Of a stretch of DNA of 64,000 nucleotides, positions 4,681 to 64,000 are shown piece after piece. Position 1 is the first letter of the stretch. Every line of letters begins with the position of its first letter. A program made the position numbers and the translations under genes. This DNA comes from Ptychodera flava (Eukaryota), in NCBI RefSeq assembly GCF_041260155.1, contig NC_091947.1, forward strand, positions 31,834,780-31,898,779, written 5' to 3'. The notes beneath the pieces are model-generated. The model worked only from the letters and a program-made list of their open reading frames with translations, was not told the DNA's origin and searched no databases.

Positions 4681-4773
<93 letters not shown>

Positions 4774-12947: not shown

Positions 12948-13037
<90 letters not shown>

Positions 13038-26022: not shown

Positions 26023-26149
26023 CTGAGACAGAATCAAGCAATGATACAACACATGAAATGACAACAACAACACAATCACTGAGTAAACACATTAAAAGCT
26101 TGTCATGCAGAAGAACTTGCACCTAATTTTACGCTACGAAAAATAAAAA

Positions 26150-26163
26150 AAATCAAAATTCGA

Positions 26164-26222
<59 letters not shown>

Positions 26223-26340
26223 GGTGGTGGTGATGATGATGATGATGATGATAATGATGTTCATCATCATGAACATCATCATCATCATCATCATCATGAA
26301 CATCATCATCATCATCATCATCATTAGTATCGACCAATCA
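26150..26340. repeat. (CAT/ATG)n microsatellite with a (GTG)n segment, intronic
   Basis: It is a long imperfect trinucleotide array. It produces the spurious poly-His, poly-Asp and poly-Met ORFs in the track. The paralog at 62095-62160 is much shorter. Confidence 0.95.
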
Positions 26341-26679
26341 GCCCAAAACATTCAAGGATGTGATTTCAGATTTCAGATTGACAATAGAACCGCTAATGTT
26401 GCTAAACTACTTTCTTTGTTTTACCTTAAATTGCTTTGATGGTTCTAGGGACTGACGGATAGTTTTTACGAACTCGCCTCGGTGACGACTGACAACAGTT
26501 TTTGTCATTTACATGTATATTATATTCACCACACTATTATGTCAATTCCCTGTTTGGACCAAGTGCCTTCATTTTATGAAAAACACACACATGTAATCTA
26601 AATATTGCATTTGTACGAATAACACAAAATAATTTCCATGTAAACAACACATTTACTTCCCCGTCACAGTAATTCTTAC

Positions 26680-26821
26680 CCGCTTGATGCTTGGAGGTTG
26701 TGAAACGTATATGCATTGTAGGTCGTACGCCTTCGGAAGCGTGCTTGCACTTTTTAAAAGAAATTCTTCTTTTTTCTGACAAGCAGACTTACTGGAAATT
26801 ACAGCAGATTTATCTGTGCAG
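26680..26821 (-). CDS. POFUT-like gene copy I, internal exon encoding ...CTDKSAVISSKSACQKKEEFLLKSASTLPKAYDLQCIYVSQPPSIKR
   Basis: The acceptor is ctctacaacaacag| and the donor is AAGCGG|gtaaga at 26680. YDLQCIYVSQPPS resembles the LDAQSVYVATDSE block of O-fucosyltransferases. Copy II carries a 21-bp in-frame insertion in this exon. Confidence 0.5.
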
Positions 26822-27026
26822 CTGTTGTTGTAGAGAAGATCAAAATACCCTTTGATGAGTTGGTTTATCATCGCTAAATATGCTAGCATATAAAATTTAC
26901 TTTTTTCTTTTTTTTCAATAAATCTGTCGTAATATTCTTATACCTTCATATTCACTTTCTAACGATTGACGTCAACCTTACGTCATTCAATTGATCGACA
27001 CTTGTGTTTCTGTCTGTCTGTCTGTC

Positions 27027-27059
<33 letters not shown>

Positions 27060-27701
27060 ATGGACGGCTGAAATTTACAATAAAATTCATAAATTGGCCC
27101 GGAATATGAAGGAATTTGAAACTTTCAGTGCACTATTTCAAACATCTGATGCGGAAGTGCAAGTACTTGATTTTTTTTTAACTTCGGTAATTCTCTGTAC
27201 ACGCGCAGCAGTTATAGAATTAATTACAGACTTGGCTAAATTTTGAAGTTAAGGTAGAATGTGCCTCGGGACTCGGACAGATATTCGAATATCAATTTTT
27301 TATACTAAATTATTCTTTCCTGATCTACATCTTGCGGGGGCTCATTGTAAAGCTCTTGGGAGTCAGAAAAATTTAACCGTCTTAGCTTTGCAAGAACCGA
27401 AATTTTTATTTTTCCTCATAGAGTTAATACAGGGATGGCAGCCATTTTGAATTTCAAATATCGGTAAGTGTTAGGCAATTTGTTTCTCTGGTACCAAACT
27501 TTGTACAGACACCGTTGATTTTTATTCATGAATTGGTTAGAGAATGGTTGAAAGTTTCATCAATCCGGAAAGTTTGAGCAAAATACTTCCTAAGTGTGAA
27601 ACATAACGGCTTCATCAAAGGACTGATGGTGGAAATCGATTCTACAGTACTTCAAATAGGTGAACGACATTAAAAAGATCAAGAGATTTAAAATGACTCA
27701 C

Positions 27702-28230
27702 ATTTCGTCTAGCTTACTTCTCCAATGTACAGCAACAATAGGCCGATTCCCACACATATTTCGGAGAATAGTCCTAGCCACTAGTCTGATTGAGGGCGCC
27801 CTGACAAAATGAACTTCAACAATTTCGTCCAATTCTTCCCCTTTTCAATATCATGTAGTTGAAGTCTAGGGGTTGGTACATTCCAAAACACTCCTGACGC
27901 TGGCTCAGCAATATTTTTCTGACTGTATCCACTTGGCTTTTTGATACAGATTCTGTATCGGGTGCATTGACACTGAAAATGTCTAATATCTGTTGGCGCT
28001 CTTTTGCGTATGACGATTCATGACTGTCCATGTTTGGGACTGTCGGTTCAAAATGCGGAGCACGAACGACAATTTCCAGGTTGTAGTTGCATCTCAGCTG
28101 GAAATCCTCAATGGTGGCGACTGGCAGTATGTTTTGCAAACTCTCCACACTGTATGTCTCGTTGAACGGCACGACACTGGCAGCCGTACCCTCAGAGTCA
28201 TCGACGAACGGGACGAGGACAATAGTTCTG
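27702..28230 (-). pseudogene. POFUT-like gene copy I, large exon containing the NRTIVLVPF and HWRSKLDE (HxRxxD-type) motifs, with two 1-bp deletions relative to copy II
   Basis: The translation reads ...LNRTIVLVPFVDDSEGTAASVVPFNETYSVESLQ...FEPTVPNMDSHESSYAKERQQILDIF...QPLDFNYM, is then frameshifted, and restores in another frame as ...RPIVAVHWRSKLDE before the donor AAAT|GTGAGT at 27702. The deletions lie in A and G homopolymers near 27830-27850. The upstream exon boundary is not resolved. Confidence 0.45.
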
Positions 28231-42743: not shown

Positions 42744-43930
42744 TCGTTAAGTGGGTCAGGGCTATTTTTGAGTTGGTGACTTATCTGCGTTCTTGTTTTG
42801 TAATCTTATTGCTCATTGGTATTGTTTTTAGGCGAAAGTTGTGAAAGGAAAACAAACAAACAAACAAATAAACTAATAACGAAATTGCCGTATTTCTCTC
42901 GGAGTTGTACGCTAAACGCTGAGTGAAGGCCAACTCTAAGGTTTGCTTTATGTTTTGGAAGATGGCAACACTAACAATGACAATAACTTCATGTACACTA
43001 TTGTCGGTAGATGATCAGAATACAAGAGAAGTTGGCCAGTAACGAGCTCGGCCAGTGGGAGAACTCGGCCAGTAGGCGAACTCAGCCAGCAGGAGTATGC
43101 AACCACTTAGAACGTAAGATCCACATTGTACTTCCATTTTTAAGGTAGCTACATACCTTTCAGACACTTTCAGATTTTTATTTTTTCTCAATTGAACATG
43201 TCCCAAACCCCAATAAAGTATACATTTCCTGAAAGCCCTGATATAGAGCTATCCGACCAAGCACAGTACACGGTCATCATTTGCATAGGAGTCACGTGAC
43301 AAGCGTTTTTCTGAACCTTCCAAAAACCTGTTTTTCCCGCCTTATGCGAACACGCTGCAAGATTTCCGGGGAATTTCTTCATTGACAAGCCTTGACAATA
43401 TCCTTCAAAATCGTGTCTTGGATTTTCTTTGTATGCCTTTGTTTTTTTAATGCGCTCTTAAAGATGTTAGATAAGGTGCTTTTCAAGGAATTTTAATTAT
43501 CACGCCATATATTTGAATGGAGCCTCCGGGAAAAAATCGCAGACACGGTTTTGAAGGATATTGTCAAGGCTTGTCAATGAAGAAATTCTAACCGGAAACG
43601 GAAATCTTGCAACGTGTTTGCATAAGGCGGGAAAACCGGTTTTTGAAGCTTCAGCAAACGCTTGTCACGTGACTCTTATGCAAATAATGACCGTGTACTG
43701 TACTTGGTCGGATAGCTCTATATCAGGGCTTTCAGAAAATGTATACTTTATTGGGGTTTGGGACGTGTTCAATTGAGAAAAAAATAAAAATCTGAAAGTG
43801 TCTAAAAGGTACGTAGCTACCTTAAGTTCCGCTAAAGTTCTAATGCAAAAGCAATATCGATGTCATGCATGAGCGTAATGCTTGCTAACTTCCCAGTTCA
43901 CGCACATACGCGTGTCCCAACTACACATAA
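42744..43930. repeat. Repeat family B copy 2, interrupted by a foldback element
   Basis: It is collinear with 1830-2330 apart from the 678-bp insertion at 43144-43821. Confidence 0.65.
43144..43821. mobile_element. TTAA-flanked foldback element with ~270-bp inverted arms and a ~125-bp spacer
   Basis: The arms 43144-43410 and 43535-43821 are near-perfect reverse complements, with termini GGTAGCTACATACC...GGTACGTAGCTACC. TTAA lies at 43140-43143 and 43822-43825. The paralogous empty site at 2195-2205 reads TTTTAAGGTCCGC. Confidence 0.7.
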
Positions 43931-44510: not shown

Positions 44511-44579
44511 GTGGAGGTGCCCAACGTCCACTGTGAGGTCAGTTAACATATCTTTTCATGTTTGATGTTTGATGTTTAC

Positions 44580-47500
44580 ATCTATCAACTGCGCCTGCAT
44601 CACTTCATGACCATATATGGTGATGTTTATGGCTCGACTGATCACTGCCGACCTATAACATTCCCGTACGTGCAAATAAACCTAGCATGAGTCAGACACA
44701 CCTTTACAGGTGGATGGCATAGGGACCTTCAGGGAGCACACCATAAGATAATCTGGGGGTGGTCATTGTATAGATATGCGAATTTTGCGTTCAATGATTT
44801 GGGATATATTTTCAGAGCATGGATACCTTTTCCATTGGAAATCAAAATTATTTTACTTTGCAATCATATGAATTCTTCTTGAGTAAAAGCGACGAGGCTG
44901 AAAAATGATAATTCACATTTCCCCTCCTGATATGAAGTTGATGAAGTCTGCTAACATTTCCACATTTCGACTAACCGTCCAAAGGTGTTAGTATTTCAGT
45001 CGCAGCATTTCAATTAGCCTTCCTCATGTTTGATAACTTTAAGTCACCAAACTTTGTAAAACTCGTTCTCAGTTTCTTTGAGTTAAAACTGTACCTGCTG
45101 TATAGTCTGGGTCCTTAAAATGGCCTGATTAGGGACAAATGTTTTTGGAAGGTCCTCAAATTTTGCTTACAAATGATATTGCATTCGAGTTATGTTCAAA
45201 ATTATGAATAATTGATGACAATTTGTCAGGTCAGCTCCGTATATATTTATTCAGAATCAATGACCAAGGAGAGAAAAGAGTATTAAAAGAATATCGGCTT
45301 CAATAAAATGTGAAAAGTTCTAGAGTCATTTTCTAAGTACTTTGCCGATAAAATCTTCAAGAAACAGAAACAAATAATAAAACACTTATTTGTTACATTC
45401 AATACTTAATAAATTCAACAAACCTGGCCGTGTATTGCAATCCGAATCGAAAAATCAGCTGTGCGTAACGCAATATAGACTGAAAACACATGGAGGAAGG
45501 GCTTCTCATCTATGACTCCGCAGGTTTTGCTGTACAACTTAATGCTTGTCGAATGTCACATCCTTACCATGTGACATTCGACAAGCATCCACTGTGAACA
45601 GCTCCAAGCATAAATTAAAGATTCATTTTGTTTACCAAGGCATATAATGTACATTGAACACGATTGGAATTAATTTGGGAGAATAGGATACACGTGTAGT
45701 AGTAATGTTGGTTTAGTCAGCACATTCAAGCTCATCTACTTTTCTTTTTTTGCAACTTTCAGCTATAGGGCACCGAACACTTTTGATATAGAATTGAACA
45801 ATTGAAAGATCCTATTTTCCCAAATTAGTTCCAATCGTGTATTGACTCAACCTGACTCCTGAGACTAACATTGCCTATTTATTTTGTCGCTTTATAGATA
45901 TTTTTGATTGACTGTCAACAAATGTCAACGACATTGACGATACTTAAATCTTCCTCGAAGGAAGTTTTGTCTCCTTTATTATGATGTCCAAACAGTGGTT
46001 TTGAAGTGCCACATGGACTTCTCTACTATCATATGTTTCGCACAAATGTACAATGTCATACAATTTTATGCGGGCCGAGTTGTGTCTATTAATATATTTT
46101 AGGGATGTACATATCCGAAATGGATTTGACCTCAGTGTCCATGACCAGAATACAATGACATGATTATGAACAGAGAGAGAACGTATTTGATATTTGACCA
46201 ACTTCCATGTCCACTTCAAGCAACGCATTTCAAGAACTCCTTTAAGCATATTCATATTTGTCAAGACCATACCATGTCTCCTGAGTCATCACGGAGGCAT
46301 TGTGGAAACATGAAAAGAGCAATGAAGGTTAACAGTAGAAAACTAAGTCGTGCACCAGCGTCTCGAATAGACCCAACGTGAACACATTCCCTCGGTATCA
46401 GCGGGGGACACACTTCATGAAATCTGTGATATGCAGGTCGGTGTCTATGTATCTACAGTAGTAGAACAACACGTCAACGCAATGACACATTTAGACTTTT
46501 TATAGCCAATAAATCTTCCGACTTATTTTGTGAAGGTGTGTTCTTTCGTCGAATGACACGGGCAGCCGTACAAGCACGAGGTATATTGCGCCTCGAAGAC
46601 ATATTAGGACTCTCCAAATTTTACAATTCTGTTTTGGTCTACCACTTGTCGGGGCTCATTTTGAAGCCCATACAGTCGGTAAAATTTTTACCTGCTTAGT
46701 TTTGTGAAAATTAGGGATGGAGTGGAATGTATTGCCGCCTAGCGCTGGTTTGAAGAATGACATTTCAACAGTTACAAGTAGGACAGTGCCTCCGTGGCCA
46801 TCACATAAAGAAGAACCCACGCCCGCGCGATATAACCTTTTGTGACAGTATAGGTCATAACTCATGGCAACCATTGTGAAGTAATTACAAGTTTCGTTAC
46901 AGACTCGCATGGGAAAGAGCATATCTTCACGACCATATAGAGTAACTTAGCTTTCATCATCTAAACGACGAGGTATGACCTTTGTATGACGTGACTGACT
47001 TCAGTAAATTACTTGAAGGTGGTGAGAGGAAAAGCGTAAATGAGTGTCAGTCTTTCAATCCATGCCATTTTAGAATGAGGATTGATAATGCAAATAAAAA
47101 TAGCCGTTTTTCCTTACATATACTCTTCTTTCTAGTGAGATATTACATTTCAGAAAATAGCGTCAAGTATTTTACTAAAATTAATTTTTATCATTAATAC
47201 CAAACTTAAGGTTTTTTACCCCAAATATACACCCACTTCATCCTTCAAGTAAACTACTGCTATCATACTAAACTTCAAAGTCTCTGCTTTTGAAAATATA
47301 TGGTATGAGGGGGTTTCCTTATCATCTTTGATGAGAAATATTGCTTTGAAAAAAAACTGTTGGCAACATGCAGCTTCACCTTAACATGAGGCTCTGCTCT
47401 TGTCAAGATCATATGTATGACGATGGCAACAATTTTGCCACTGTTCAGCATGCTATACGCAACTGGTATAGCAAGTTACTTCATGAATTTGCCTAACATT

Positions 47501-49880
47501 GTTATTAAAACGTATTTTGGAGTTAAGTACATTCAGCATTAAAAAGTATGTCATCATGTAAAGTATGGTATAGTATTACACAAGATGGAAGTTTCGTATT
47601 ATTTATTTCTTAATACACATCACTCAGGTAGTTCTGCGCATTTTAGAAGTCACAGACTTAAACTCGTTTAGTTGAAAACAAGAATTCCAATTCCGAAAAT
47701 AGTTTAAAGGTGTTTACTATTTTGATGAAATAATGAAGGGGCAAATGTCTACTTTGATATTGGAGCATTTAACCATTCTAATGAAAGCTTGATGTACAAG
47801 TCAGTCTCATTAAAATCTGAACCAAGATCACCGACCACAATATGTCTTAATCAGTGCCACCGTATTCACCATCAATCGCTCCACTGCTTGTATCGCCCTT
47901 CAGTGAACCATCTGAATAGGAAAGACAACGTGTTCGGCATGTTCGCCTGGCCCAAGCCCGGCATCCGCATAGCCACTCGGTTATGCTTGCCGACATGTAC
48001 AATAAGATCATGTACCGCGATTCTTTATTGAATAGACAAGTCGTATAGTGGTATATGCCGAGCGCCTGTGCTCTCTCTAGTGAACCATCTAATTAGCAAA
48101 GACATCCATTGGTTTCAATTTCGTCACCTTTTGGCATTTCAGATACAAGCAGTATGTAAAATTGTTGTGGAATTTTTCTATTTCTCGGAATTTCAACCCA
48201 GTGAAGGTATATTAATACGGCATCAAATCAATTCCAGCAATCGTTATCATTCAAGGCAAGTAAATCACCAGGTCCAAGAAACAATACAAAATAAACACTG
48301 ACAAAGTCAATAGTGCAATCTCGAACCACTAGTTGTGGTACCAGGTGTCCAAAATGGGTAAGCAAGATTGAACTAAAGTGGTAATTCAGCTAGCTGCCAA
48401 ATTATTGCTGTGAGTTAAGCCAGGATTATTGTCTCTTATCATCTGAGTAACAGATGTGACATATTTGGATTTAAGATCTCCATATCTACCACGGAAGTTC
48501 TTATAAATGAGCTACCCAACCCACTCTGTTAAAATCTCCGTCTCATTATCTTCAATACTTAAAAGTTGTGTCTGACTTGAAAGTCTTCATATGATCACAA
48601 GCTCTACAGTATCTCAGGAGTTGTAAAATGTATACACCATAAGCTAGACCATACGACCGACTAAATATTACTGATTAAGTAAGGAAAGTTATTGCTTTCA
48701 AAATTAAAATCGTCCTGTTTGTCATACAGCTCAGCGTGCGACTTAGGCCTATTTTGTCGAATTAAAAAAACAGATCAAGATATGACGCTGAGCCCACACT
48801 TTCTGTTGTTTCTTTTATTTCTAATTCATCTTGATAGATGTGATGGAGGTAGTTATGATCATTCTCGTTGCTCAGAAAGCAAGTTCCTTCATCACTCCAT
48901 AGCATTAGAGGGTAAAAGTTCGAGTTTCGTTACGAAAACGAAAGGTTACGAGATTAAAGGTCATGCACAATGGACAAAGAGTCGAAAATGCAGTCAGACC
49001 ATATATGGCATAGACATACACCTCAATCGTCGGAGGGGACACATACCAACAGCAATGTATGCGTGAATGAGTACAGGGGACATGACCAGCAATAACACGA
49101 ATACCGAAACCAAATATTGAACAGTTGTCCTTTGTTCTTATACAGCTGTACGTCTACGTCTAACATCCATGTCGCTAGGGACTTTTGTGAGGCTGTTTTA
49201 TAAACATTTAAAGGTGTGGTTGCATTAAAATGCTTTCCCTTTAAAATGGTGTGTGTAGGATTTTATTTGTGTGGATCATAAAGTCTTACAAATTTACGTG
49301 AAACTGTGAGAAAACTCTTCATTACACCTACACAGGTATGATACCGTAACTGAACTGCAAGTCATCTTCATTTGGGAGCCATTCACACTGAAAGCCGTCA
49401 AATTAACTGTCCCGTATACATTGGTCTGCTTGGCTTCCAGCTTTGACTCAAGAACGCTGACACACTTAACGCAGAACGGCGCGGTATGTTGTTAGGTCGG
49501 AGTATCCATGTGACACTCGACAAGCATCCACTGTGAACAGCTCCAAGCATAAATTAAAGATTCAGTTTGTTTACCAAGGCATACAATGTACATTGAACAC
49601 GATTGGAATAGATTTGGGAGAATAGGATACACATGTAGTAGTGGTGCTGGTTTAATCAGCAAATTCAAGCTCATCTACTGTTCTTTTTTTGCAACTTTCA
49701 GCTATAGGGCACCGAACACTTTTGATATTGAAATTTAACAATTGAAAGATCCTATTTTCCCAAATTAGTTCCAATCGTGTATTGACTCAACCTGACCCCT
49801 GAGACTAACATTGCGTATTGGTTTTGTCGCTTTATAAATATTTTTGATTGACTGTCAACAAATATCAACGACATTAGTGA
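44580..49880. repeat. Mosaic of repeat families D (44580-45960), E (45950-46560 and 48700-49500), F-related segments (46700-48300) and a D tail (49500-49880)
   Basis: Blocks are collinear with 17440-22740. ORFs in these blocks are not conserved between copies. Confidence 0.6.
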
Positions 49881-49886
49881 TACTTA

Positions 49887-52200
49887 CAGACGTCGTGACT
49901 GCGCCCCGGACAGCCAATTTGCAATATACCCAGCGATATCATGTGCCACACACACAATTAGCTCATTAATTAGCGAAACATTTGGTCAGATGTGAAGTGT
50001 GTCTCTCTTGCTGTTATCAGCGCGACCATTTCCTGTGTCAAAAGTTGTGAAATGTAAACACATCTCCTGGTACAAATCATTTCTTTCAGGGGGTGGCTGC
50101 TCACGGTAATAACTTCGAAGTGGTAAGAATAACACAAAATTTTACATAAAATACAACACTGCTAATAAAGTATTTCTTTTCTACAAATACCGTTTCTTTT
50201 TCATTTTTTATAAGACCAAAGTATTGTAAGATTGAAATGCTATACGCGTTTCGTTAGCTCCCCAAACCTCCTGCATTATGGTTTCTTCCAAACGAGAAAT
50301 CCACTAAGCGGTCGTCAGAATTCGTGGCGGTAAAAGTTGAGTTGAAAACTTTCGCCTTTCTGTTCGGCATCATCCGATAGCCTTCGCGCACTTTATAGAT
50401 TATTAGAAATCACTAGTTGCAGTAGTTGGAAGCCCGCAAGTCAAGGGCAAATAAAGGAGAACGTTTTCTAACTTACACGCTATCTAAATGTAAATCGAAC
50501 TAAATTTTATCGAAGTAATCAACAAAACCAATGTTACTTCACATATCGACTACTCAGAACGAAAACTAATCGATCAATTTCTTATTTAGGCATTCCCGTC
50601 TACACGAGTACACGCGACAACAATGACCACATGAACTTCAACTTGTAAATCAATGAAACGGCCCGGAATCCACACAGCCTAAAAAAAATGCGTGACATCA
50701 GCGGGTTATGTCGGAAACGGCTTCAATTATAGCAGTTTCAGTAAACTGACGAACTGCAAAGACATCATGTTTACGGAGATACCCTTTGACAAATCGAAAG
50801 CACATTTCACAAGTGTTAAACTCGGGGCTGTACGGAGGCTGAAACACTAAAGTAACTTCACGCTCGCCCAACAGTTCCCGTAGGTATGGCTCTGCGATCC
50901 GACCATGGTGGAATCCGCAATTATCCATGACAACTGTGTCGCCCGGAGATAAAATCTGATCATCTTGTTCGTCAACGACTTCCAGCGCCTCCTCAAAAAA
51001 GTAGATCATTTCAAGGCCGTTCGAAGGGCCATCGAGAATATTAAAGTAATCGACGCCCCGTGCACAATGAAGGAGGTGTAGCGTGTAGTTCACGTCCGAC
51101 GTGTATCGCTGGACTTCAAATGCGGGTTGACCTCTCAGACTGTGTCCATACTGTCTGTTGCCCGATGTCTTTTTGACGCCCGCTTCATCAAAAAAATGCA
51201 CACTGAGGGGATCAAGTTGAGAAATGTCATCGATGTACTGCATTATTTTTCTGATGTTCTTTCAGTCAACTGTTCAGCCGGAACACTCTGTATTTTCTTG
51301 TAGGAATAATTTAAATCTCTGCCGAGGATGTCGTAAATCGTCCTGTGTGCAGGGAGGTTTTCTTCTGTGCAGACATTTTGATTGAGCAGTTCAGATCGAA
51401 TTTCGGAAACAGTCATTGAAGGCTTACCGAATTTCAAATATTCCACGAAATTCACGACTTCGGGTACGCACTTTGATCGTAGGGCTCCGCGATTCTTCGA
51501 AGGATGAACGAATCCAGTCTTAAGAAAGTGAGTTACTATGTCATGCACGGTTGTCTTCGGCATACATAGTTGATGCGCGATCTCTCGAACACTTGTCCCT
51601 TTGCACTCGTGTTTGATCGACAAGTCAATGATCTTCGACCGTTTGTCGATGTCGGTTATTTTTTGACATATTTGAAAGTTCCTGGCAATGAGAGACGACC
51701 GACCGGTGAAAGTTTTGACTGCACTGAACTTGGCGATGTCTGTGTAAGCGGTAATTTTACGTCACGACTGTGTTTACGTTTAACCGGAAAGGGCACTCAC
51801 AATTTCAATTTCGGGGTCTCACTGAGCAGAAACTTAGAAAATGGTGTAATTAATCACTCACTCTAGGCAACGACAATAAACGAAAATGATAACTTTCTTT
51901 TTAAAATATCACAGTGTCCCATACAACTTTACCGATACAAGACGTCAAAATATGGGATCAAATGTAACAGGTTTGATGACCATATTCTGGACCGCACCTG
52001 TACAGGAAATGGTTTGATCCAGACACGTTTATTTATAGTCTGGATTCATGGGGCGCTTAGTGCGTCGGCAACGTAAACTCATGCCTGCAATCAAAGGCCT
52101 ACAGCTACCGTTTAAAACGCTGAGCGATATCACTGTGTGGCCATCAACATTGCTGGGTATATTGCAAATTGGCTGTCCGGGGGCGCAGTCACGGACTCTG
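49887..52200 (-). mobile_element. Tc1-family (DD34E) transposon, complete copy 2 of 2314 bp, with TIRs of at least 50 bp and a TA target-site duplication
   Basis: The left terminus is CAGACGTCGTGACTGCGCCCCGGACAGCCAATTTGCAATATACCCAGC. The right terminus reverse-complemented is CAGAGTCCGTGACTGCGCCCCCGGACAGCCAATTTGCAATATACCCAGC. TA lies at 49885-49886 and 52201-52202. The intact empty site GATACTTAAATCTTCC is visible at 18869-18884 and 45939-45954. Confidence 0.9.
50698..51623 (-). pseudogene. Tc1-like transposase, about 310 aa, with a single 1-bp deletion near 51243
   Basis: The track ORFs 51243-51623 (HTH region ...TSVREIAHQLCMPKTTVHDIVTHFLKTGF...) and 50698-51243 (DDE region) are contiguous in copy 1. 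The motifs are FFDEAG, VVMDNCGFHH and PPYSPEFN. Confidence 0.85.
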
Positions 52201-53636
52201 TAAATCTTTCTAGAAGGAGGTTTTGTCTCCTTTATTATCAATGATGTCCAAACAGTGGTTTTGAAGTGCTACATGGACTTCTCTACTATCATATCTAGTG
52301 TTTCGCACAAATGTACAATGTACATAAATTTTTTATGAGGGCCGAGTTGTGTCTATTAATAGTTTAGGGATGTACATATCCGAAGAGGATTTGACCTCAG
52401 TGCCCTTGATTAGAATACAATGACCTCAGTGCGCTTGAATAGAATACAATGACATGATTATGAATAGAGAGAACGTATTTGATATTTGACCAACTTCCGT
52501 GCCCATTTCAAGCAACACATTTCGAGAACTCCTTTAAGCATATTCAGGTCTTAAACTTGTCAAGACCATACCATGTCTCCTGACTCCTCTGGGAGGCATT
52601 ATGGGAAACATGAAAAGAGCAATGAAGGTTAACGGTAGAAAACAAAGTCGTGCACAAGCGTCCCGAACAGACCCAACGTGAACACATTCCCTCGTCATGA
52701 GTGGGGGACACACTTCATGAAATCTATGATATGCAGGTCGGTCTCTCCGTATACAGTAGTAGAACAACACGCCAACGCCATGACACATTTAGACTTCTTA
52801 TTGCAAATAAATCTACTTCCTTATTTTGTGAAGGTGTGTTTTTTCGTCGAATGACACGGCAGCCGTACAAGAAGTCATTTTTGTCATACAGCTCAGTGTA
52901 CGACTTAGGCCTATTTAGTCGAATTAAAAAAATAGATCAAGATATGACGCTTAGCCCACACTTTCTGTTGTTTCTTTTATTTCTAATTCATCTGGATAGA
53001 TTTGATGGAGGTAGTTATGATCATTCTCTTTGCTCGTAAAGTAAGTTCCTTCACCACTCTACAGCATTAGAGGGTAAAAGTTCGAGTTTCGTCACAAAAA
53101 CGAAATGGTACGGGATTAAAGGTCATGCACAATGGACAAAGAGTCGAAAATGCAGTCAGACCATATATAGCATAGACATACTAGTACACCTCAACCGTCG
53201 GAGGGGACACATACCGACAGCAATGTATGCGTGAATGAGTAGAGGGGACCAGCAATAACACGAATACACTTGTCCTTTGTTCTTTTACAGCTGTGCGTCT
53301 ATGTCTAACAACCATGTCGCTAGGGGTTTTTGGTGAGACTGTTTTAAGAAATTTAAAGGTGCGGAAGCATTAAAATGCTTTCCCTTTAAAAGAGTCTGCG
53401 TAGGATGTGATTTGTGTGGACCATAAAGTCTTACAAATTTATGTGAAACTGTGAGAAAACTCTTCATTACGCCTACACAGGTATGATACGGTAACTGAAC
53501 TGCAAGTCATCTTCATTTGGGAGCCATTCACACTGAAAGCCGTCAAACTAACTCCCCGTATACATTGGTCTGCTTGTTTCAGCTTTGACTCAAGAACGCT
53601 GACACACTTAACGCAGAACGGTGCGGTATGTTGTTA

Positions 53637-55015
53637 GGGTGGACCATTTGATATCCTGGGGGGGGGGGGCTTGGAAGATTGGTGGAGAGCCATTATTTTT
53701 TTCCCACGTGCTTCACCATGAATTATTTTTTTTCTACAGGGCATATGCTGGCAACTTTTTTTTCACTTTCCTTCTTCGAGATATATTTTTTTTTTACCAA
53801 ATTTCGGTGCAATGTTTGTTTGCTTGGTTTTTCACGCCCAGTAACAAGATGCTGTTCTATCGCGCACAGACTATATTCAAGAAACTAAATGAAGATATGT
53901 AAATACATGTACATTTTTGATTCACTTCACAAAAACATATTTGTAAAATCATGTACATTTACGGCATTTACTTGTCAGTGTTGTCCTTACATTGAAAGTA
54001 GCCGGGTAATTTAAGAAAGTAGACGGGTGGACTGCGAGGGAGCGAAGCGACCGAGCGGCGAGTGAGCGTAGCGAACGAGGGGGGGGGGTAGAGCGCGAGA
54101 GGGGGTGTCTCCCCTCTCGCAAGGCGAAAAATGAAATTTTGGAGTGGAAATGGTGTTCTCTGGTGGCATCTGAGGTGACATTTAGCTGAGACTGAAACAG
54201 TACTTTTGTTGTGTGTCTTAGACGTGGCTCACATACAACAAAACAAATAAACATGATTTTGTTTTGTTTGTATTATTTATGACACACTTATGGTTTAATT
54301 GCAGTGAAGATGTAACATTTAATCTTAAATCACCCGCTGTCTGTTCATTTCATTGCCCATTTCCCATTCTTCATTACTACATAGTAGTTTCCCAAAACCA
54401 TCAAACTCATTCGCTTTTGTTAAGAAAAACATTGGTAAGATAATTCACTATAACTGTGTTCGCATTTACGAATAAAACATGCGTATATAGAAAACTCATA
54501 ACAATGAAAAAATGTGTAGAGAGTCGATCCAATGCGTAATAATATTACGCATTGGATTGAGTCTCTACGCATTTTTTCATTGTTATGAGTTTTCTATACG
54601 CAAACGATAATAGTAAAATGTTTGCAGGCTGTCTCTCTTCTTGTGGTATTTTGACAAAATCCATACATTCAGATTTACACATTTCTGGAAAACACTGGTG
54701 AGCAATTTCAATTTCAGCATACTTCCTCTAATCAGAAGGTCATGTATACTGTACAATTGTTCATATTCAGTTATTGTTCCTCAAGCTTGAAATGGTTTAT
54801 GCTTTATAAAACTCCAGAGCTACTGCTTGATTTTTTTATTGATGCTGCAGTGTGCATCGAACAATTGCCAAGATTTTTTTCCGAGTCGCAATGGTCCATA
54901 ATTGTTTTTCCATCAGCCACTTAAAGCCAGATTTTTTTTTTCAAGCAACTCCACCTGTCATCTTTTTTTTTCCCCAAATCTTCCAAGCCCCCCCAGGATA
55001 TCAAATGGTCCACCC
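53637..55015. mobile_element. PIF/Harbinger-like MITE of 1379 bp with 41-bp G-run TIRs and a TTA target-site duplication; present only in copy II
   Basis: The 5' end is GGGTGGACCATTTGATATCCTGGGGGGGGGGGCTTGGAAGATT and the 3' end AATCTTCCAAGCCCCCCCAGGATATCAAATGGTCCACCC. TTA lies at 53634-53636 and 55016-55018. The empty paralogous site at 20628-20640 reads GTTGTTAGGTCGG. Internally it has poly-T tracts, a GC-rich segment at 54000-54130 and a ~140-bp palindrome centred near 54545. Confidence 0.85.
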
Positions 55016-58000
55016 TTAGGTCGGAGTATCCGGCATTATACCCCTTTTAACTCACTTCACGATTTCGCTCATCCTTTACACGCTATACACATATTGTCGA
55101 GTCAGGAAGAGCAGTAAACTTTCAATAGGTATTGCTTGACGACGTGTTTATCGAGACCTTTATGAATTTCAATTCTGTTTTCTCAGTGTGCATTGTAGTG
55201 TAGAATGTTTTACAGACGCCGCGAGATGCATATCCCGTTGGTGCATCCCTGTTTCCGTTGGGCAAATAAACAAAATCGAAACACTCGATATTTCAATCTT
55301 TATGGTGTTTCTTCACGGCAGAAAGAGATATCAACCACGTATCATGTATGTTGGTCGACAGAAAAACTTTATTTTAAATCGTGGAATTAAAAATGACAAA
55401 AAACTACACGAAGGCACGAGGGCTTCATTAATTGACGGGTCAAAAGAGTACTTTAGTTTCTTGTTACACTTTAATTTTGTGACATCTATAGATCGACATC
55501 AATGGTCAATGATGATACTTCCAATCAATAGCTTTATTTTGAAGTCAAACCGTTGCACAGTATTTTCACATCCTCCAGCGCACCGTCATTTTTTTCAAGT
55601 GCCTTTTCTCCCAGCCCCCTTCAGACCTGTTTTGTGACCGCAGCCTCATGTGAATGAATCTGTTGTCTTTGGCGTATACCGTATGATAACGATACTTGAG
55701 ATTCGTTCAGATCCGTTTTGCATTCGATATGGTCACAACGAAACATCTCATTTTATACGAAGAAAATGTCTAACAAGATTATGTATGGGCGAGATCTGTA
55801 TCGATCGAAGTTTGCATACTGAAGAAAAGCACAGAGAGCGTCCTCAACGGATGGCCTCAATAAGTCATGATTGGACTGTATTGCCAGACAGCGCTGGCTT
55901 TGAGTTTTCAACGAAGAATGACATTTCATCAATGACAACCAGGACAGTGCCTCCGTGACCATCACATAAAGAAGAACCCATGCCCGCGCGATATAACCTT
56001 TTGAGACAGTATAGGTCATAACTCATGGCAACCATTGTGAAGTAATTACAAGTTTCTTTACAGACTCACATGGGAAAGAGCATATCTTCACGACCATATA
56101 GAGTAGCTTTCATCATCTGAACGACGAGGTATGACCTTTGTATGACGTGACTGACTTCAGTAAATTACTTGAAGGTGGTGAGAGGAAAAGCATTAGTGTT
56201 TAATATAAGGCTTTGCTCTTGTTAAGGTCATATGTATGACGATGGCATTAATTTTGTCACTTTTCAGCATGCTAGACGCAACTGGTATATCAAGTTACTT
56301 CATGAATTTGTCTAACATTGTTGTGAAACCGTATTTTGGAGTTAAGTACATTCGCGATTAAAAAGTATATACATGTCATCATGTGAAGTAGGTATAGTAT
56401 TACACAAGATGGAAGTTTCGTATTTTTAATTTCTTAATACCCATGACTCAGGTAGTTCTGCGCATTTTATGAGTCACAGACTCGTTGAAAACAAGAATTC
56501 CAATTCAGAAAATAGTTTTAAGGTGTTCTCTATTTCGATGAAATAATGAAGGGGCAAAGGGCTTCTTTGATATTGGAGCAGTTTTTTGATGAAAGCTTGA
56601 TGTACATGTCATTCTTATTGAAATCACTTCTCCTGAATCAAGATCACCTGCCACAATATGTCTTAATCAGTGCCACCGTATTCACCATCAATCGCTCCAC
56701 TGCTTGTATCGCTCTCTAGTGAATAGCAAAGATAACGTGTTCGGCATGTTCGCCTGGCCCAAGCCCGGCAGCCACATAGCCACTCGGTTATGCTAGCCTA
56801 CAATATTATGTGGCAGCCACATAGCCACTCGGTTATGCTAGCCTACAATAGTACAGTAATATCATGTACTGTGATTCTTTATTGAATAGACAAGTCGTAT
56901 AGACATCGTACATATTAAATATGATTATTATCCCAGAAATGCGCCAAGCGCCTGTGCTCTCTCTATTGCCATCTGAATAGCAAAGACATCCATTGGTTTC
57001 AATTTCGTCACCTTTTCTCATTTTAGTATGTAAAAGTTTCGCGGTATTTTTCTATTTCTCAGAATTTCAACTCAATGGAGGTATGTTAATATGGCATCAA
57101 ATCAATTCCAGCAATCGTTATCATTCAAGTCAAGTAAATCACCAGGTCCAAGAAACAATACAAAATACACACTGACAAAATCAATAGTGCAATCTCGAAC
57201 CACTAGTGGTGGTACCAGGTGTCTGGAATGGGTAAGCGTACCCATCAAGTCACAAGTAATTGTCAGGTAATTCAGATAGTTGCCAAATTACTGTTGTGAG
57301 TCAAAGCCAGGAATACCGTCTCTCATCATCTGGGTAACAGATTTGTCATATTTGAACATCTCCATATCTACCATAAAACTTCTGAATGATCTAGCCAGCC
57401 TACTTCGTGAAAATCTGTATCACTAGGTTTAAGACGAAAAAGCTGTGTCTTACTTGAAAGTCTTCATATGAATTACAAGCTCTACAGTATCTCAAGAGTT
57501 GTGAAATGTATACACCATAAGCTTGACCGGACGTCCGATGAAATATAACTGGTTAAGTAGGGAAAGTTGTTGATTTCAAAATTAAAATCGTCCCTTTTGT
57601 CATACAGCTTCGTGTGTAACTTAAGCCTATTTTGTCGATTTTTTTTAAAAAAAAGATCAAGATATGACGCTGAGCCAACACTTTCTGTTGTTTCTTTTAT
57701 TTCTAATTCATCTTGATAGATGTGATGGAGGTAATTATGATCTTTCTCTTTGCTCGGAAAGTAAGTTCTTTCACCACTCCACAGCATTAGAGGATAAAAC
57801 TTCGAGTTTTGTTACGAATACGAAATGGTACGACAGTAAAAGATCATAATGGACAAAGAGTTGAAAATACAGTCAGACCATATATGGCATAGACATACTA
57901 GTACACCTCAATCGTCGGAGGGGACACATACCGACAGCAATGTATGCGTGAATGAGTACAGGGGACATGACCAGGAATAACACGAATACTAAAACCAAAC

Positions 58001-58165
58001 AATGAACAGTTCTCCTTTGTTCTTATACAGCTGTATGTCTACGTCTAACATCCATGTCACTAGGGACTTTTGTGAGGCTGTTTTATGAAATTTAAAGGTG
58101 TGGTTGCATTAAAATGCTCTCCCTTTAAAATGGTGTGTGTAGGACTTTATTTGTGTGGATCATAA

Positions 58166-58341
58166 GGGACTGGTCAGTTTCTTCGGCCTGGGGGGGGGGG
58201 GCGGTGGATTATTTTTTGCCGACGTCAAAAGTGGCTGACCCCCCTATTCCAAATTTTGAAAACAGGGTGACCCCCCTATTCCAAATTTCTAAAACAGGGT
58301 GACCCCCCCCGGGCGCGACAAAGGTAAAACAAAAGATGGAC

Positions 58342-58417
<76 letters not shown>

Positions 58418-59578
58418 TTTACATTTTACATATATTTATATTTTAAATAGTCATTCTATGTTTTAGTGAAATTGTTGCATGTCAGTTGTAAGATAGGAAT
58501 TTCAAAGTGTCATCTTAAAGTTTAAATACAGTACATTTTGAATGAGCTGTATTTGAATGAGCTGTGAATGTATTTCACACTTTCTCTGCTTAACCAGATG
58601 TCCTGAACTGTTGTACAGAAATGGATGTCAATCATTAATATCAAAGAGGAAAAGCAGTGAATCAAAAACTTTGATGGGTGTTAAGACTTGCCAACCATCC
58701 AATTAAATCTACTGAGGAGCCATAGAGAGCTTTTTTAGCCAAATCTGATGTGTAAGTGTCTGAGAGGACCTTTTCTTGTGTAACATTGAAACCATAAAAG
58801 CACAGCTAATAATGACAAAAACTGCCTTTTTTAACTGTTATTTTGTTCATAAAAAAGCATCTTTCTACAGAAAACCTATGAAACAAAGGAAAATAATTGC
58901 ATCAATGAGAAGGAAAGATATCTTGTCATTTTTCTATCTCTAAAATAAGTCACTGTATCAAATACATATTGTGAAATATTTGTGCATGTTGCTTTCTCAT
59001 ACTGAATTCTCACAGAGAGAACAGAAAAGTATCAGGAATTTGTCATCCTTTTCATATGAAATGCAGATTTCATAATGGTACACTTTCACTTAGCAAACAT
59101 CAAGATATCTCTGAAAGTATGGCGCCCGAAGGGGGCGCCAAAAAATATGAAACATCCTGATATCTCTGATATATATGCCTTGTATATTAAAGTCATGCAC
59201 CTGAAGGGCATGCTGAAAGATGTATGATATATTAAAGTAATGAGCTTGAAGAGCACGCTGAAAAATATTGAACATACAGATATCTCTGATGTATGTGTGC
59301 TTGATATGTTAAAGTTGGGCGTGCTGAAAAATATGACTGATTATTAAAGTTACGCGCCCGAAGGGCGCGCCGAAAAGTACAACTGAATGATGAATTTTGT
59401 GGCTGACACTAGCATTTTAGGCAATGATGAGCCTGTGTCAAAATTCAAAAACACACTGACCCCCCCTATTGGGCATTTCAAAAACATGGTGACCCCCCCT
59501 ATCACCAAAGTCAAAAACAGGGTGACCCCCCCCCATGAATCCACCGGCCCCCCCAGGCTGAAGAAACTGACCAGTCCC
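58166..59578. mobile_element. PIF/Harbinger-like MITE, second copy of the 12764-14197 element, with a TAA target-site duplication; present only in copy II
   Basis: Its TIRs are identical to those of the element at 12764. TAA lies at 58163-58165 and 59579-59581. The empty paralogous site at 20084-20095 reads TGGATCATAAAGGCTTAC. Confidence 0.85.
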
Positions 59579-61816
59579 TAAAGGCTTACAAATTTACGTG
59601 AAACTGTGAAAAACTTTCATTACGCCTACACAGGTATGATAACCGTGCCTGAACTGCAAGTCACCTTATTTTGGGAGCCATTCACACTGGAAGCCGTCAA
59701 ATTATCAGCTTCAAGCGTAAACATTGGTGTGCTTGGCTTCCAGCTTTGACTCAAGAACGCTGGCACACTTAACGCAGAACGGCGCGGTATGTTGTTAGAT
59801 CGGAGTATCCGGGATAATACCCCTTTTACCTTACTTCACGATTTCGCTCATCCTTTACACGCTATACACACATTGCCGTGTAAGTAAGAGCAATAAACCT
59901 TCAATATGTATTGCTTGACGACGTGTTTACCAAGACCTTTATGAATTTCAATTCTGTTTTCTCAGTATACATTGGAGTATATAATGATTTACAGACCCTG
60001 CGAGATGTATATTCCGTTGGCACATCCCTGTTTCCTTACCACGACTAGGGCTACTAAAACACAATCTAAACACTTGACATTTCATTAACTTTTACATGTA
60101 TGAAAGGTCAATTTTACAATTTATACGGCGTTTCTACACGGCTTAAAGAGACATCGATCACATTTCATATATGTTGGTCGCCATAAACACATTCTTATCA
60201 ATCGTGAAACAAAAATGACAAAAACTACAGCATGGATGCATAATTGATAGCCGACCACTTCTTTTATCCCCTCAAGTATTGCGTGTGACGGATATGACAT
60301 CAATATCGTTGAAACTCAACGCTACTTTTGATTACCCCTTTCAAGCATACCGATGGACTGGTACCTAAGTCAACCATACCTCACCCACTGAACTTAATTG
60401 CCATGTAAAGTATTTGTTGCCGTCATCCTATTCTGTCTAAATCTTAGTATACTAAATTCTTCCACACAGAATCGGTCTTTGGGAAAACGCTCCGTCGTCG
60501 TTGCCGTCGAAATATACATGGTGTTTGCGTAGCCAGCAAATTCTTAACCATCAATCTGTACCGTGTTTTATCAAGATTTTACAAAATTTACAGATATCAT
60601 TTGCCATGTTTCAGGTAACATATAAAATAACGATTTAAAAGCAAGCGAAAAGTCCAATCTTGCCCAATTTAATATATGAGGAAAGATGCAAGCAGTGTTT
60701 TCCGTCTTTTTGTGTTACAATAGTGAGACTTACAACTAAAAGAAATATCCCAGTTGTATCGACACAAGTTCAAGCAGCGCCCTCAGACACCCTCACCGAT
60801 CGCCCTTTCAGCAACCATTAAACTTTGACTGTCAATATCTGATTTCAAATGAGATCGATGTAATTTGGCATATCAGGAAGGTCAGATAGATACACAGAAG
60901 GTTTTGCGTTCGGTGACTTCTCTCGGTTGTGTCTGACAAAGGAAGCCCATGCAGAATTCTTTCCTGAAATGAATATGGCCGCACCTGGAAAATATAAAGC
61001 GATTTAAAATCGCACTGAACTTCAAATATGATACAAAATAAGACAAAAAGGATATTTCACACATGGTAAAATACTCAGCAGAAGCATGAGAAGCAGACAA
61101 AGAACCATCCTGACGGGTATTTGGGCAAATAGACTTTGGTATAGCAATGCAAGAAAGTGAAAATATCTTGAGACTTTTCGGAGAGAGAGTTGGTATACAA
61201 GACAAATTGTATTGATAAATGGATTCTTAAATGTTGTCATCATGCTCGATATCATGATAAGCTGAACAAAAGAATTCTTTCATCGAAAGCCGCTGCTAAA
61301 AATGCCGATTTAGCAGTGTCTGGTAATTTGAGCAGCTAATGACCGATGTCTCCGAAAGATCTTAGACACTGTTGGAGGAACGTTTAAGAATTTGTTATGC
61401 AGAAATTATAAGATTTCAATCTAATTCACGTTTAAGAATTTGTTATGCAGAAATTATAAGATTTCAATCTAATTCAACTCCCCAGTGCTTCTTCTTTGGA
61501 AGATGTACTATTTCATAAAGTGCTCAGTGTGCTGTGTAAAATTGTTCAGATATATATTCGTGCCATGTATCCAAGGATGTCAGGAATTCCGTCATCGACC
61601 TACATCAGTTTATAAACGAAAGTTATGATCAACTCTGTCTTCAACGCGATATGGCATAAACAGACATTGATGACACCGTATATCGTACTGAATCACTGAA
61701 CAGTCAAGAAACGTAAGATAGACCCCCACATTTGTACTTATATCAGGATTATAAAAACGGATTGGCTTACAAAATCCCTTAGAGATATTCCCTTGTTTTA
61801 CACTGGAGCCCACTAA

Positions 61817-61966
61817 TTACTTATCACATATCTCTTGTTCCACTAGTGACAGAAAGTAGTCGTCACTGAAGACAGATGGCTTATGGGATAGCTTATTTGC
61901 CATTGCGATGACGTCAACTGAAGAATAAACTTTTGGTATCCTTGGTGACAGATACTTGACTATTCC
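61817..61966 (-). CDS. POFUT-like gene copy II, terminal coding exon ending ...SLVEQEICDK followed by a stop
   Basis: The acceptor is ...cccag|GGAATAGTC and the stop TAA is at 61817-61819. It differs from copy I by an in-frame 3-bp indel. Confidence 0.55.
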   Translation of the reverse strand, partial: GIVKYLSPRIPKVYSSVDVIAMANKLSHKPSVFSDDYFLSLVEQEICDK

Positions 61967-62511
61967 CTGGGACAGAATCAAGCAATGATACAACACATGA
62001 AATGACAACAACAGCACAATCACTGAGTAAACACATTGAAACCTTGCGATGCAGGACTGACGAACTTGTACCTAATTTTACGCCTGAAAAATTCGAATGA
62101 TGATGATGATGATGATGATGATGATCGTCATCATCATCATAAACATCATCATCATCACTGTCGACCAATCAGCCAAAACATTCAGTGATGTGATTTCAGA
62201 TTTCAGATTGACAATAGAACCGCTAAATGTTGGTAAATTACTTTCTTTGTTTTATCTTCAATTGCTCTGATGGTTTAGGGGACCGACGGATAGTTTTTAC
62301 GAACTCGCCTCAGTGACGACTGACAACTGTTTTTGTCATTTACATGTATATTATATTCACCACACGATTTATAGCAATTCCTTGTTTGGACCAAGTGCCT
62401 TCATTTAAAGAAAAACACACACATGTAATCTAAATATTGCATTTGTACGAATAACACAAAATAATTTCCATGTAAACAACACATTTACTTCCCCGTCACA
62501 GTAATTCTTAC

Positions 62512-62674
62512 CCGCTTGATGCTTGGAGGTTGTGAAACGTATATGCATTGTAGGTCGTACGCCTCCAAGAGCTTGGTTACCGCCTTCGGAAGCGTGCTTG
62601 CACTTTTTAAAAGAAATTCTTCTTTTTTCTGACAAGCAGACTTACTGGAAATTACAGCAGATTTATCTGTGCAG
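62512..62674 (-). CDS. POFUT-like gene copy II, internal exon with a 21-bp in-frame insertion (VTKLLEA) relative to copy I
   Basis: The acceptor is ...gaacag| at 62675 and the donor is AAGCGG|gtaaga at 62512. Confidence 0.5.
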
Positions 62675-63572
62675 CTGTTCTTGTAGAGAAGATCAGAATG
62701 CCCTTTGATGAGTTGGTTTATCATCGCGAAATATGCTAGCATATAAAATTTACTTTTATTTTCTTTTTTTCAATAAATCTGTAGTGACATTCTAATTCAC
62801 TTCATATTCACTTTCTAACGATTGACGTCAACCTTACGTCATTCATTTGATCAACACTTGTTTTCTGTCTGTCTGTCTGTCTGTTGTTGTTGTTGTTGTT
62901 GTTGTTGTATGGACGCCTGAAATTTAGAAATAAAATTCAAAACTTTGAAGGAATTTGAAACTTTCAGTGCATTCTCTCAGACATCTCATGCGGAAGTGCA
63001 AGTACTTGTTGTTTATTTTTTAATTTCGGCAATTGTCTACACACGAGCAGCAGTTATAGAATTGATTGCATCACAGAGTAATATCATAGACTGTCTGATA
63101 TTACTCTGTGATTGCATACTTGGCTAAAAATTTGAAAGGTAAATGCGCCTCGGGGACTCGGACAGATATTGGAACTATCAATTGTTTATAATTATTTCCT
63201 GACCTACCTCTTGCGAGGACTCATTGTAAATCTCTTGGGCCAGAAAAATTTTAATCGCCTTAGCTTTGCAATAACCGAATTTTTTCTTTTTCCTCATAGA
63301 GTTAATACAGGGATGGCAGCCATTTTGAATTTCAAATATCGGTAATTGTTAGGCAATTTGTTTCTCTGGTACCAAACTTTGCACGGACACCCCTGATTTT
63401 TATTCTTGAATTGGTTAGAGAATGGTTGAAAGTTTCATCAATGAGGAACGTTTGAGTAAAATACTAACTGTGAAACATGATGGCTTCATCAAAGGACTGG
63501 TGGAAATCGATTCTACAGTACTTCAAATAGGTGAACGACGTTAAAAAGATCAAGAGATTTAAAATGACTCAC

Positions 63573-64000
63573 ATTTCGTCTAGCTTACTTCTCCAATGTA
63601 CGGCAACAATAGGCCGATTCTCACACATATTTCGGAGAACAGTCCTAGCCGCTAGTCTGATTGAGGGCGCTCTGACAAAATGAGCTTCAACAATTTCGTC
63701 CAATTCTTCCCCCTTTTCAATATTCATGTAGTTGAAGTCTAGGGGTTGGTACATTCCAAAACACTCCTGACGCTGGCTCAGCAATATTTTTCTGACTGTA
63801 TCCACTTGGCTTTTTGATACAGATTCTGTACCGGGTGCATTGACACTGAAAATGTCCAATATCTGTTGGCGCTCTTTCGCGTATGACGATTCATGACTGT
63901 TCATGTTTGGGACTGTCGGGCCAAAATGCGGAGCACTAACGACAACTTCTAGGTTGTAGTTGCATCTCAGCTGGAACTCCTCCATAGTGGCGACTGGCAG
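63573..64000 (-). CDS. POFUT-like gene copy II, exon with an open frame ...EEFQLRCNYNLEVVVSAPHFGPTVPNMNSHESSYAKERQQILDIF...NRPIVAVHWRSKLDE, running out of the window
   Basis: The ORF is continuous from 63985 to the donor AAAT|GTGAGT at 63573. PIVAVHWRSKLDE fits the P-x-V-G-x-H-x-R-x-x-x-D core of the GT23/GT65/GT68 fucosyltransferases. Confidence 0.5.

Follow-up and report, generated by a model that had tools for sequence, protein, structure and literature searches.

Positions 31,834,780 to 31,898,779 of the Ptychodera flava contig NC_091947.1 (forward strand, RefSeq assembly GCF_041260155.1) form a stretch of 64,000 nucleotides, referred to here as the window, which contains two near-identical copies of a transposon: copy 1 at its left edge and copy 2 further to the right. 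The question raised by this locus is to which family the element belongs and how much of its transposase is left. A sequence-only reading of the window had described a young Tc1 transposon of the DD34E type, whose two copies carry complementary single lesions, so that splicing them would give an intact transposase of about 310 amino acids (aa). Our analysis leads to a different answer, to which we assign a probability of about 85%: the copies would be two independent, recent insertions of an element of the IS630-Tc1-mariner superfamily, whose transposase of ~335 aa appears to combine a Pax-type paired domain (PAI and RED subdomains) with a DDE_3 catalytic domain of the DD38E type, and both copies would be non-autonomous as assembled. 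The transposon is real and young, but it is decayed and less intact than first claimed.

Ends and insertion sites of the two copies

Copy 2 is complete and flanked by a TA duplication, as had been claimed (Table 1). Its terminal inverted repeats (TIRs) consist of CAGACGTCGTGACTGCGCCCCGGACAGCCAATTTGCAATATACCCAGC and its partner, with three mismatches (positions 5-7) and an extra G in the right arm. They had been described as at least 50 bp long; inverted ends are indeed present, but the clear repeat comprises 49 bp including the mismatches, and a weaker similarity continues to ~75 bp. Between the TIRs, copy 2 has one transposase open reading frame (ORF) and no other ORF longer than 100 aa, and a search of the element for internal direct or inverted repeats (IR/DR structure) gave only short matches at chance level.

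The flanks of copy 2 recur twice in the window with 85-94% identity (18491-20237 and 45567-46574), in both cases without the element, and the junctions of these empty sites read GATACT-TA-AATCT, within sequence that is 91-94% identical to the flanks; the preservation of the target site in two paralogous repeats had been recognized correctly. Copy 1 had been assigned to positions 1-1827, but its similarity to copy 2 ends exactly at the element terminus plus TA, i.e., the element stops at 1806. The flank of copy 1 also has a paralogous site without the element (42748-42749, reading cgtTAagtgggtcaggg), so that the window contains three paralogous sites lacking the elements. Since the two copies have different flanks and separate element-free paralogues, we conclude that they result from two independent transpositions and not from a segmental duplication. 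Both insertions postdate the host duplications in which they lie, whose copies are 82-94% identical. The earlier claim of very recent activity holds to the extent that two near-identical insertions are younger than the host paralogues, but not to the extent that either copy, as assembled, could be called autonomous.

A segmental duplication of the host locus was considered as the origin of the two copies, given that the window is full of duplicated segments with 85-97% identity. Such a duplication is at odds with the similarity stopping exactly at the element end plus TA and with unrelated flanks, each having its own element-free paralogue. Moreover, the copies are 99.6% identical in substitutions, compared with 82-94% for the host duplications. 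We give this explanation practically no credence; the right ends rule it out, while copy 1 has its left end outside the window.

As to the surroundings of the two insertions, the dominant feature of the window is its large duplicated segments (12763-28127 versus 44576-64000; 85-97% identity, offsets of ~25-45 kb), which are accompanied by smaller local repeats. Examples are 20635-22415 versus 55016-56805 (94.6%) and 22377-23703 versus 56812-58165 (96.8%). The paralogues in this landscape double as empty-site controls for the transposon copies. A short tandem-repeat array, recognized from self-matches offset by 6-26 bp, lies at ~4680-4830 downstream of copy 1.

Domains and classification of the transposase

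The transposase gene is located on the minus strand. The repaired protein, in which private frameshifts of the two copies are corrected (see below), has a paired domain at ~aa 7-125 (51651-51294) and a DDE_3 domain at aa 157-302 (51201-50764). In Pfam, the DDE_3 match has an E value of 4e-17, and the PAX match reaches 37.7 bits (cut-off 22) and covers positions 23-124 of 125, which bears out the earlier description of a paired-like helix-turn-helix (HTH) followed by a DDE domain. The best matches in a sequence search of the PDB were the paired domains of Pax6, Prd, Pax8 and Pax5. A family profile built from an alignment of 30 sequences (A1) matched the Pax6, Pax8, Pax5 and Prd paired domains with E values of 7e-24 to 1e-20 over 116 aa and the PAI subdomain of Sleeping Beauty with 1e-6 only, and no transposase catalytic domain was found among PDB sequences with this profile at E ≤ 10. 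The domain HTH_Tnp_Tc3_2 had no Pfam match in the repaired protein. As controls, Sleeping Beauty and an Intruder (IT) transposase showed a weak, partial PAX match of 23-27 bits that extended to position 84-99, and had HTH_Tnp_Tc3_2 instead. The first HTH of the paired domain (PAI subdomain) contains a four-residue insertion, KHEC (codons 19-22, 51606-51617, minus strand), which is present in 0 of 29 aligned relatives.

A structural model (AlphaFold2 (AF2); mean confidence score pLDDT 81) matched full-length Mos1 (1.8e-9), the Pax6 paired domain (2.6e-7, 29% identity) and the catalytic core of Sleeping Beauty (1.6e-6) in Foldseek, as well as the catalytic core of Metnase. The NCBIfam IS630 model gave 109.9 bits (cut-off 100) for the P. 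flava protein, 130.7 bits for Sleeping Beauty and 114.3 bits for IT. Since this model scores Sleeping Beauty and IT as high or higher, it supports only a broad IS630/Tc1 (DDE_3) placement; the notion that the protein is closer to IS630 than to Tc1 was dropped after these controls.

The catalytic residues were assigned by alignment. A1 shows little or no variation at D161, D249 and E288, in contrast to E283 of the SPE motif, the source of the "34", which is located in a variable column (E/D/V/Q/M/I/H/K). Comparison of A1 with Sleeping Beauty (reference sequence checked against 5CR4) using hhalign gave a probability of 96.6% and an E value of 6.4e-10, and aligned D161 with D153, D249 with D244 and E288 with E279, with a four-residue insertion after the HH. 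Spacing is given here as the number of residues in between (34 for Sleeping Beauty, residues 244 to 279). The predicted catalytic site is therefore DD38E, the two Ds being separated by 87 residues, and not DD34E with spacings of 88 and 34, as proposed before: both A1 and the hhalign alignment show that it differs from the reference Tc1 transposase.

At the superfamily level, the sequence-only reading was right, as the cut-and-paste element targets TA, is bounded by TIRs and belongs to the IS630-Tc1-mariner superfamily. A canonical young Tc1 element, with one complementary lesion per copy and an intact autonomous transposase after splicing, would agree with several features that are real, namely the TA duplication, the CAG at the start of the TIRs, a paired-like HTH and a DDE domain, and with the stop-free ORF of 323 aa that is obtained once the intact state is taken at four sites. 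It does not agree with a spacing of 38 or with the variability of the column behind the "34", nor with the lack of HTH_Tnp_Tc3_2. Furthermore, neither phmmer nor profile searches detected a match to the catalytic domains of Sleeping Beauty or Mos1, the BLASTP alignment with Sleeping Beauty covers 63 N-terminal residues only, and there are five frameshifting lesions in all, one of them shared. We regard a canonical Tc1 element as very improbable.

The same 38-residue spacing is characteristic of IT, a named family of the DD38E type and sister of Tc1, which was reported from Cnidaria and arthropods, with elements of 1.5-1.7 kb (PMC7731502). However, the IT transposase (ORF translated from Table S5 of PMC7731502) has 39% identity with Sleeping Beauty in an alignment of 339 aa, while it aligns with the P. 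flava protein over 57 aa only, with 23% identity and an E value of 3e-4. IT possesses HTH_Tnp_Tc3_2 and the GRPR motif; the P. flava protein has neither, its linker being PSKNRGALRSK, and the P. flava element is larger (2.3 kb). Membership in IT is even harder to credit than membership in Tc1, and we conclude from these sequence comparisons that the DD38E spacing common to both is convergent. Pairwise and profile comparisons place the element in what appears to be a distinct PAX + DDE_3 lineage outside Tc1 proper and Intruder. This corrects a classification that spacing alone would miss twice, first as DD34E/Tc1 and then as Intruder, as DDxE spacing is convergent.

Frameshifts and the state of the transposase gene

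The base-by-base comparison of the two copies over 1806 bp gave seven substitutions, five of them transversions (Kimura two-parameter distance 0.39%; 99.6% identity in substitutions), and seven indels (98.5% identity counting gaps). The ~99% identity reported earlier was right as to the high similarity, but the copies differ by seven indels rather than by two lesions. On the minus strand, the ATG and the TGA are located at 1276-1274 and 322-320 in copy 1, and at 51669-51667 and 50700-50698 in copy 2. Neither copy has an uninterrupted full-length transposase ORF, since each carries three frameshifts (including the 14-bp deletion of copy 1). The five lesions comprise two private ones in each copy and one that is shared. 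The 14 bp absent from copy 1, which had been noticed before, are missing at the junction 1038/1039 and present in copy 2 at 51416-51429; its second private frameshift is a C missing in the run 1206-1207 (corresponding to 51597-51599 of copy 2). For copy 2, a one-base deletion had been reported as the sole defect. The T is indeed missing (51257-51258), but a second private frameshift and the shared one exist as well (Table 1), and the idea of complementary single lesions has to be abandoned. The relatives fix the ancestral states: their N-termini, MS....ID.R.KIIDLS, correspond to the frame of copy 1, and their G.S.R.IA motif to that of copy 2.

When the intact state is chosen at all four private sites, the result is a stop-free ORF of 323 aa instead of the expected intact transposase of ~310 aa, and the conserved C-terminus is missing from it. 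In the relatives (n = 30), the protein runs on past "ITx" into a near-invariant tail, ITPxMSxxFFRxCG(F/Y). In both copies, this tail is encoded in the adjacent frame (...NPLMSRIFFRLCGF...), and the ORF is stopped by the TGA. A tblastn search with the P. flava paralogue P0124 as a query located the frame switch exactly at 50704, and the addition of one G at 50703-50705 led to a protein that aligns with P0124 over residues 1-335 with 71% identity, tail included. Since the tail is still out of frame in both copies, the two-copy consensus is not an intact family protein. The out-of-frame motif is a lesion and not evidence against ancestry in the PAX + DDE_3 lineage. Judging from the sequences, the common source of both copies probably carried the C-terminal frameshift already. 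As this shared third frameshift removes the C-terminal motif, it is probable that the source element was already altered at its C-terminus, or that the copies were mobilised in trans.

Of copy 2, only the downstream ORF of 181 aa is annotated in RefSeq; among the P. flava proteins, XP_070539510.1 is identical to this ORF and XP_070539508.1 to the 181-aa ORF of copy 1. Each of the four substitutions within this C-terminal ORF alters the protein sequence, and no fewer than three affect residues that the relatives conserve (N to H, F to C and S to N). That all of them are nonsynonymous fits neutral decay. The substitution spectrum as a whole, which is rich in transversions and has indels as frequent as substitutions, was judged atypical of neutral divergence and compatible with some residual assembly error.

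Table 1 Features of the two transposon copies in the window and ends of related elements
Feature	Position	Strand	Remark
Copy 2, complete element	49887-52200		2314 bp; transposase gene on minus strand
Left TA target-site duplication of copy 2	49885-49886	.	Paralogous empty sites with one TA
Right TA target-site duplication of copy 2	52201-52202	.	
Copy 2 inverted end, 3' side of transposase gene	49887-49935	+	Begins CAGACGTCGTGAC; weaker similarity to ~49965
Copy 2 inverted end, 5' side of gene	52151-52200	-	One extra G, run 52179-52183, compared with own left arm and copy 1
Non-coding region downstream of transposase stop	49936-50697	-	~0.76 kb; no ORF >55 aa
Copy 2 transposase coding region	50698-51669	-	323 codons once two private frameshifts are repaired
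5' non-coding region, right inverted end to ATG	51670-52150	-	
Conserved C-terminal motif, out of frame	50666-50704	-	PLMSRIFFRLCGF; P0124 residues 318-330 match in other frame
Frameshift common to both copies	50703-50705 (copy 1: 325-327)	-	G-run of 3, 4 needed; makes TGA 50700-50698
Catalytic E288 codon	50806-50808	-	PPYSPEFNTCE motif; 38 residues after D249
Catalytic D249 codon	50923-50925	-	MDNCGFHH motif
Catalytic D161 codon	51187-51189	-	HFFDE motif
Copy 2 private frameshift 2	51257-51258	-	T-run of 2, 3 in copy 1; ORF split at codon 139
Copy 2 private frameshift 1	51659-51664	-	T-run of 6, 5 in copy 1; initiator ATG out of frame
Copy 1, cut by window edge	1-1806	-	Corresponds to copy 2 50377-52200; right inverted end 1758-1806
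TA next to copy 1	1807-1808	.	Flank unlike copy 2 flank
Empty target site, paralogue of copy 2 locus	18876-18877	.	Single TA
Second empty target site, another paralogue	45945-45946	.	Single TA
End of related element L004 (Saccoglossus)			TA / CAGCGAGCGC; TIR ~245 bp, element 3.28 kb
End of related element L002 (ENA contig)			TA / CAGTCAAACCGG; TIR 114 bp
End of related element L003 (Dendronephthya)			TA / CAGTCAAATCCGG; TIR 125 bp

Several points weigh against our interpretation of the locus as two decayed insertions of a separate lineage. The placement is derived from pairwise and profile comparisons, and the activity of the element and its TIR binding are inferred. Furthermore, all seven 1-bp indels are located in homopolymer runs (chance ~0.004), and the published P. 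flava assembly was produced from noisy PacBio reads with MARVEL and Pilon polishing (PMC11175523). Together, the homopolymer location and the assembly method suggest that some frameshifts are perhaps consensus errors and that a copy may be less damaged than it appears.

In the extreme case, all 1-bp frameshifts would be long-read consensus errors, and copy 2 (perhaps including the shared site) would be an intact, live autonomous element. The homopolymer runs in question are 2-6 bases long, the ratio of indels to substitutions of ~1:1 was judged unusually high for real divergence, and polishing with short reads should work poorly where repeats are nearly identical. However, most of the runs have just 2-3 bases, errors of this kind do not explain the 14-bp deletion, and the shared lesion in the G-run requires one error to be made twice. 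Four of the seven substitutions change amino acids, at least three of them at conserved residues, which is real decay, and the window may derive from an assembly other than that of PMC11175523. We consider a live copy 2 unlikely, though not far-fetched, and keep to two non-autonomous copies as assembled.

Relatives, the Pax connection and comparison with known systems

The lineage to which we assign the element is already known from the literature: PAIRED-similar transposases of the acorn worm and the oyster served as an outgroup of the Pax tree (Burglin & Affolter 2015, PMC4901127). The Saccoglossus kowalevskii proteins LOC100378307 (P0002) and LOC102800893 (P0005) may be among these outgroup sequences. 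No formal transposable element family name for the PAX + DDE_3 lineage was found in the literature searched, including the supplements of PMC4901127. We obtained 302 significant homologues, and nearly all full-length ones among the 120 listed share PAX + DDE_3 and a length of ~335 aa; the named sources were P. flava, S. kowalevskii, Dendronephthya gigantea and Paramuricea clavata, and the lineage occurs in hemichordates and octocorals. When no word index was used, the search gave 255 clusters (50% identity) at E ≤ 1e-30. The catalytic motifs of the lineage, HFFDE, MDNCGFHH and QPPY.P..N.CE, are all present in the P. flava element (A1), and the elements of the relatives likewise show TIRs, 5'-CAG termini and TA duplications at their ends (Table 1). 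P. flava itself has diverged full-length paralogues (P0003, P0122 and P0124 with 60%, 68% and 71% identity, respectively); apart from the two 181-aa fragments in the window, no other annotated P. flava protein was >90% identical to the transposase. A match in the representative library, P0244 (751 aa), aligns with its residues 159-276 to the paired-domain region of the family profile, positions 4-121 (165 bits, two stretches). Being far longer than the transposases, it may be a fusion or a domesticated derivative.

The non-hemichordate relatives have a conserved second ORF of ~350-500 aa downstream of the transposase and convergent with it (L002:4021-5460, L003:4550-5776, L005:4735-6258 and L006:4873-5913, all on the minus strand), which is located inside the TIRs in L002 and L003. 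Its identity to the second ORFs of L002 and L003 is 46-57% among L002, L003 and L005, and ~26% for L006. It carries the motif C-x2-C-H-I-R-G-H-R-A-x-G-N-R ... SCGQxKKHPEH and had no match in Pfam or PDB. Two-gene elements of the Tc1/mariner type are unusual. Neither the P. flava nor the Saccoglossus element has the second ORF, and a tblastn search of the 0.76-kb 3' region of copy 2 revealed no remnant of the cnidarian-type ORF.

Several members or fragments of the transposase family, namely P0008, P0123 and P0027 (P. flava) and P0057 (P. clavata), have RefSeq or GenBank names such as 'paired box protein 1 homolog', 'paired box protein Pax-1-like' or 'Paired box pox-meso'. The Pax-type NCBI names of P0008, P0027 and P0057, as well as the PAX match above the Pfam threshold, would be expected if the P. 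flava sequence were a host Pax-related gene or pseudogene. A host gene, however, would not account for the fusion of the paired domain to a DDE_3 domain, for TIRs, TA duplications, empty sites and multiple near-identical frameshifted copies, or for relatives in other phyla being TIR- and TA-bounded too. This explanation has close to no probability and was rejected on the anatomy of the element. The proteins so named are transposon-derived ORFs (PAX + DDE_3) and not Pax genes. RefSeq names of the 'paired box protein 1 homolog' type are transposon-derived mis-annotations that could contaminate surveys of Pax genes.

By analogy with other members of the superfamily, the paired domain would bind the ~49-bp inverted ends, and the DDE domain would excise the element and integrate it at a TA dinucleotide, which is thereby duplicated. 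In both inverted ends, the hexamer CGTGAC (GTCACG on the other strand) is located 7 bp from the tip (49894-49899 and 52188-52193, and 1794-1799 in copy 1), the full site being GTCACGG in the right end and GTCACGA in the left one. We take GTCACG to resemble the core half-site of the PAI subdomain of Prd/Pax5. Its chance occurrence is ~2% per 6-mer before allowing for the post-hoc choice. The hexamer is absent from the ends of L002, L003 and L004; as a family feature, the half-site was rejected for this reason, and it is a lead only.

A more far-reaching proposal is that the element, mobile until very recently, belongs to the lineage from whose DNA-binding module the Pax paired domain arose, or with which it was exchanged, and that its ends carry a PAI-type core. 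We find this rather doubtful. If the repaired transposase recognised the ends via GTCACG, Pax-type DNA recognition would predate domestication and could be tested in a living deuterostome transposon-transposase pair. The insertion of a transposon is in itself routine, and the interest of the locus lies chiefly in the Pax-type DNA-binding domain. It documents that the transposase lineage most similar to the Pax paired domain was mobile until nearly the present in a hemichordate, and offers material for experiments on paired-domain domestication.

The closest known systems are the PAIRED-similar transposases of acorn worm and oyster, which share with the P. flava protein the full PAX + DDE_3 architecture, a length of ~335 aa and 57-58% identity over the full length, as well as the FFRxCG tail and the motifs HFFDE, MDNCGFHH and QPPYSPEFN(T/S)CE. 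A TA duplication and CAG termini are found in the Saccoglossus element L004, too. The P. flava subfamily differs by shorter TIRs (~49 versus ~245 bp), a smaller element (2.3 versus 3.3 kb), the KHEC insertion in the PAI subdomain and the frameshifted C-terminus.

Sleeping Beauty and Tc1 belong to the same superfamily, and they resemble the P. flava element in length, in the TA target and CAG termini, and in having a bipartite HTH ahead of DDE_3. In contrast to it, their spacing is 34 residues, the RED half is HTH_Tnp_Tc3_2 and not Pax-like, and the likeness of the catalytic domains of Sleeping Beauty and the P. flava protein was not detected by phmmer, BLASTP or a profile-versus-sequence search. 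Intruder resembles the P. flava element in its DD38E spacing and in its occurrence in animals, including cnidarians, but has a different composition of the DNA-binding domain. Mos1 mariner is the best full-length structural match and has the same TA-targeting cut-and-paste chemistry; it differs from the P. flava protein by its DD34D triad, by Pfam Transposase_1 instead of DDE_3 and by a Foldseek identity of 12-15%. Finally, Pax proteins, represented by Pax6 (6PAX), Pax5 (1K78), Pax8 (2K27) and Prd (1PDN), resemble the family profile in that its N-terminal 116 aa match the whole paired domain, including the RED helix motif PS..A.EI...L....VC...N.PS, whereas they are conserved host genes that have neither the DDE domain nor the TIRs and target-site duplications of the P. 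flava element.

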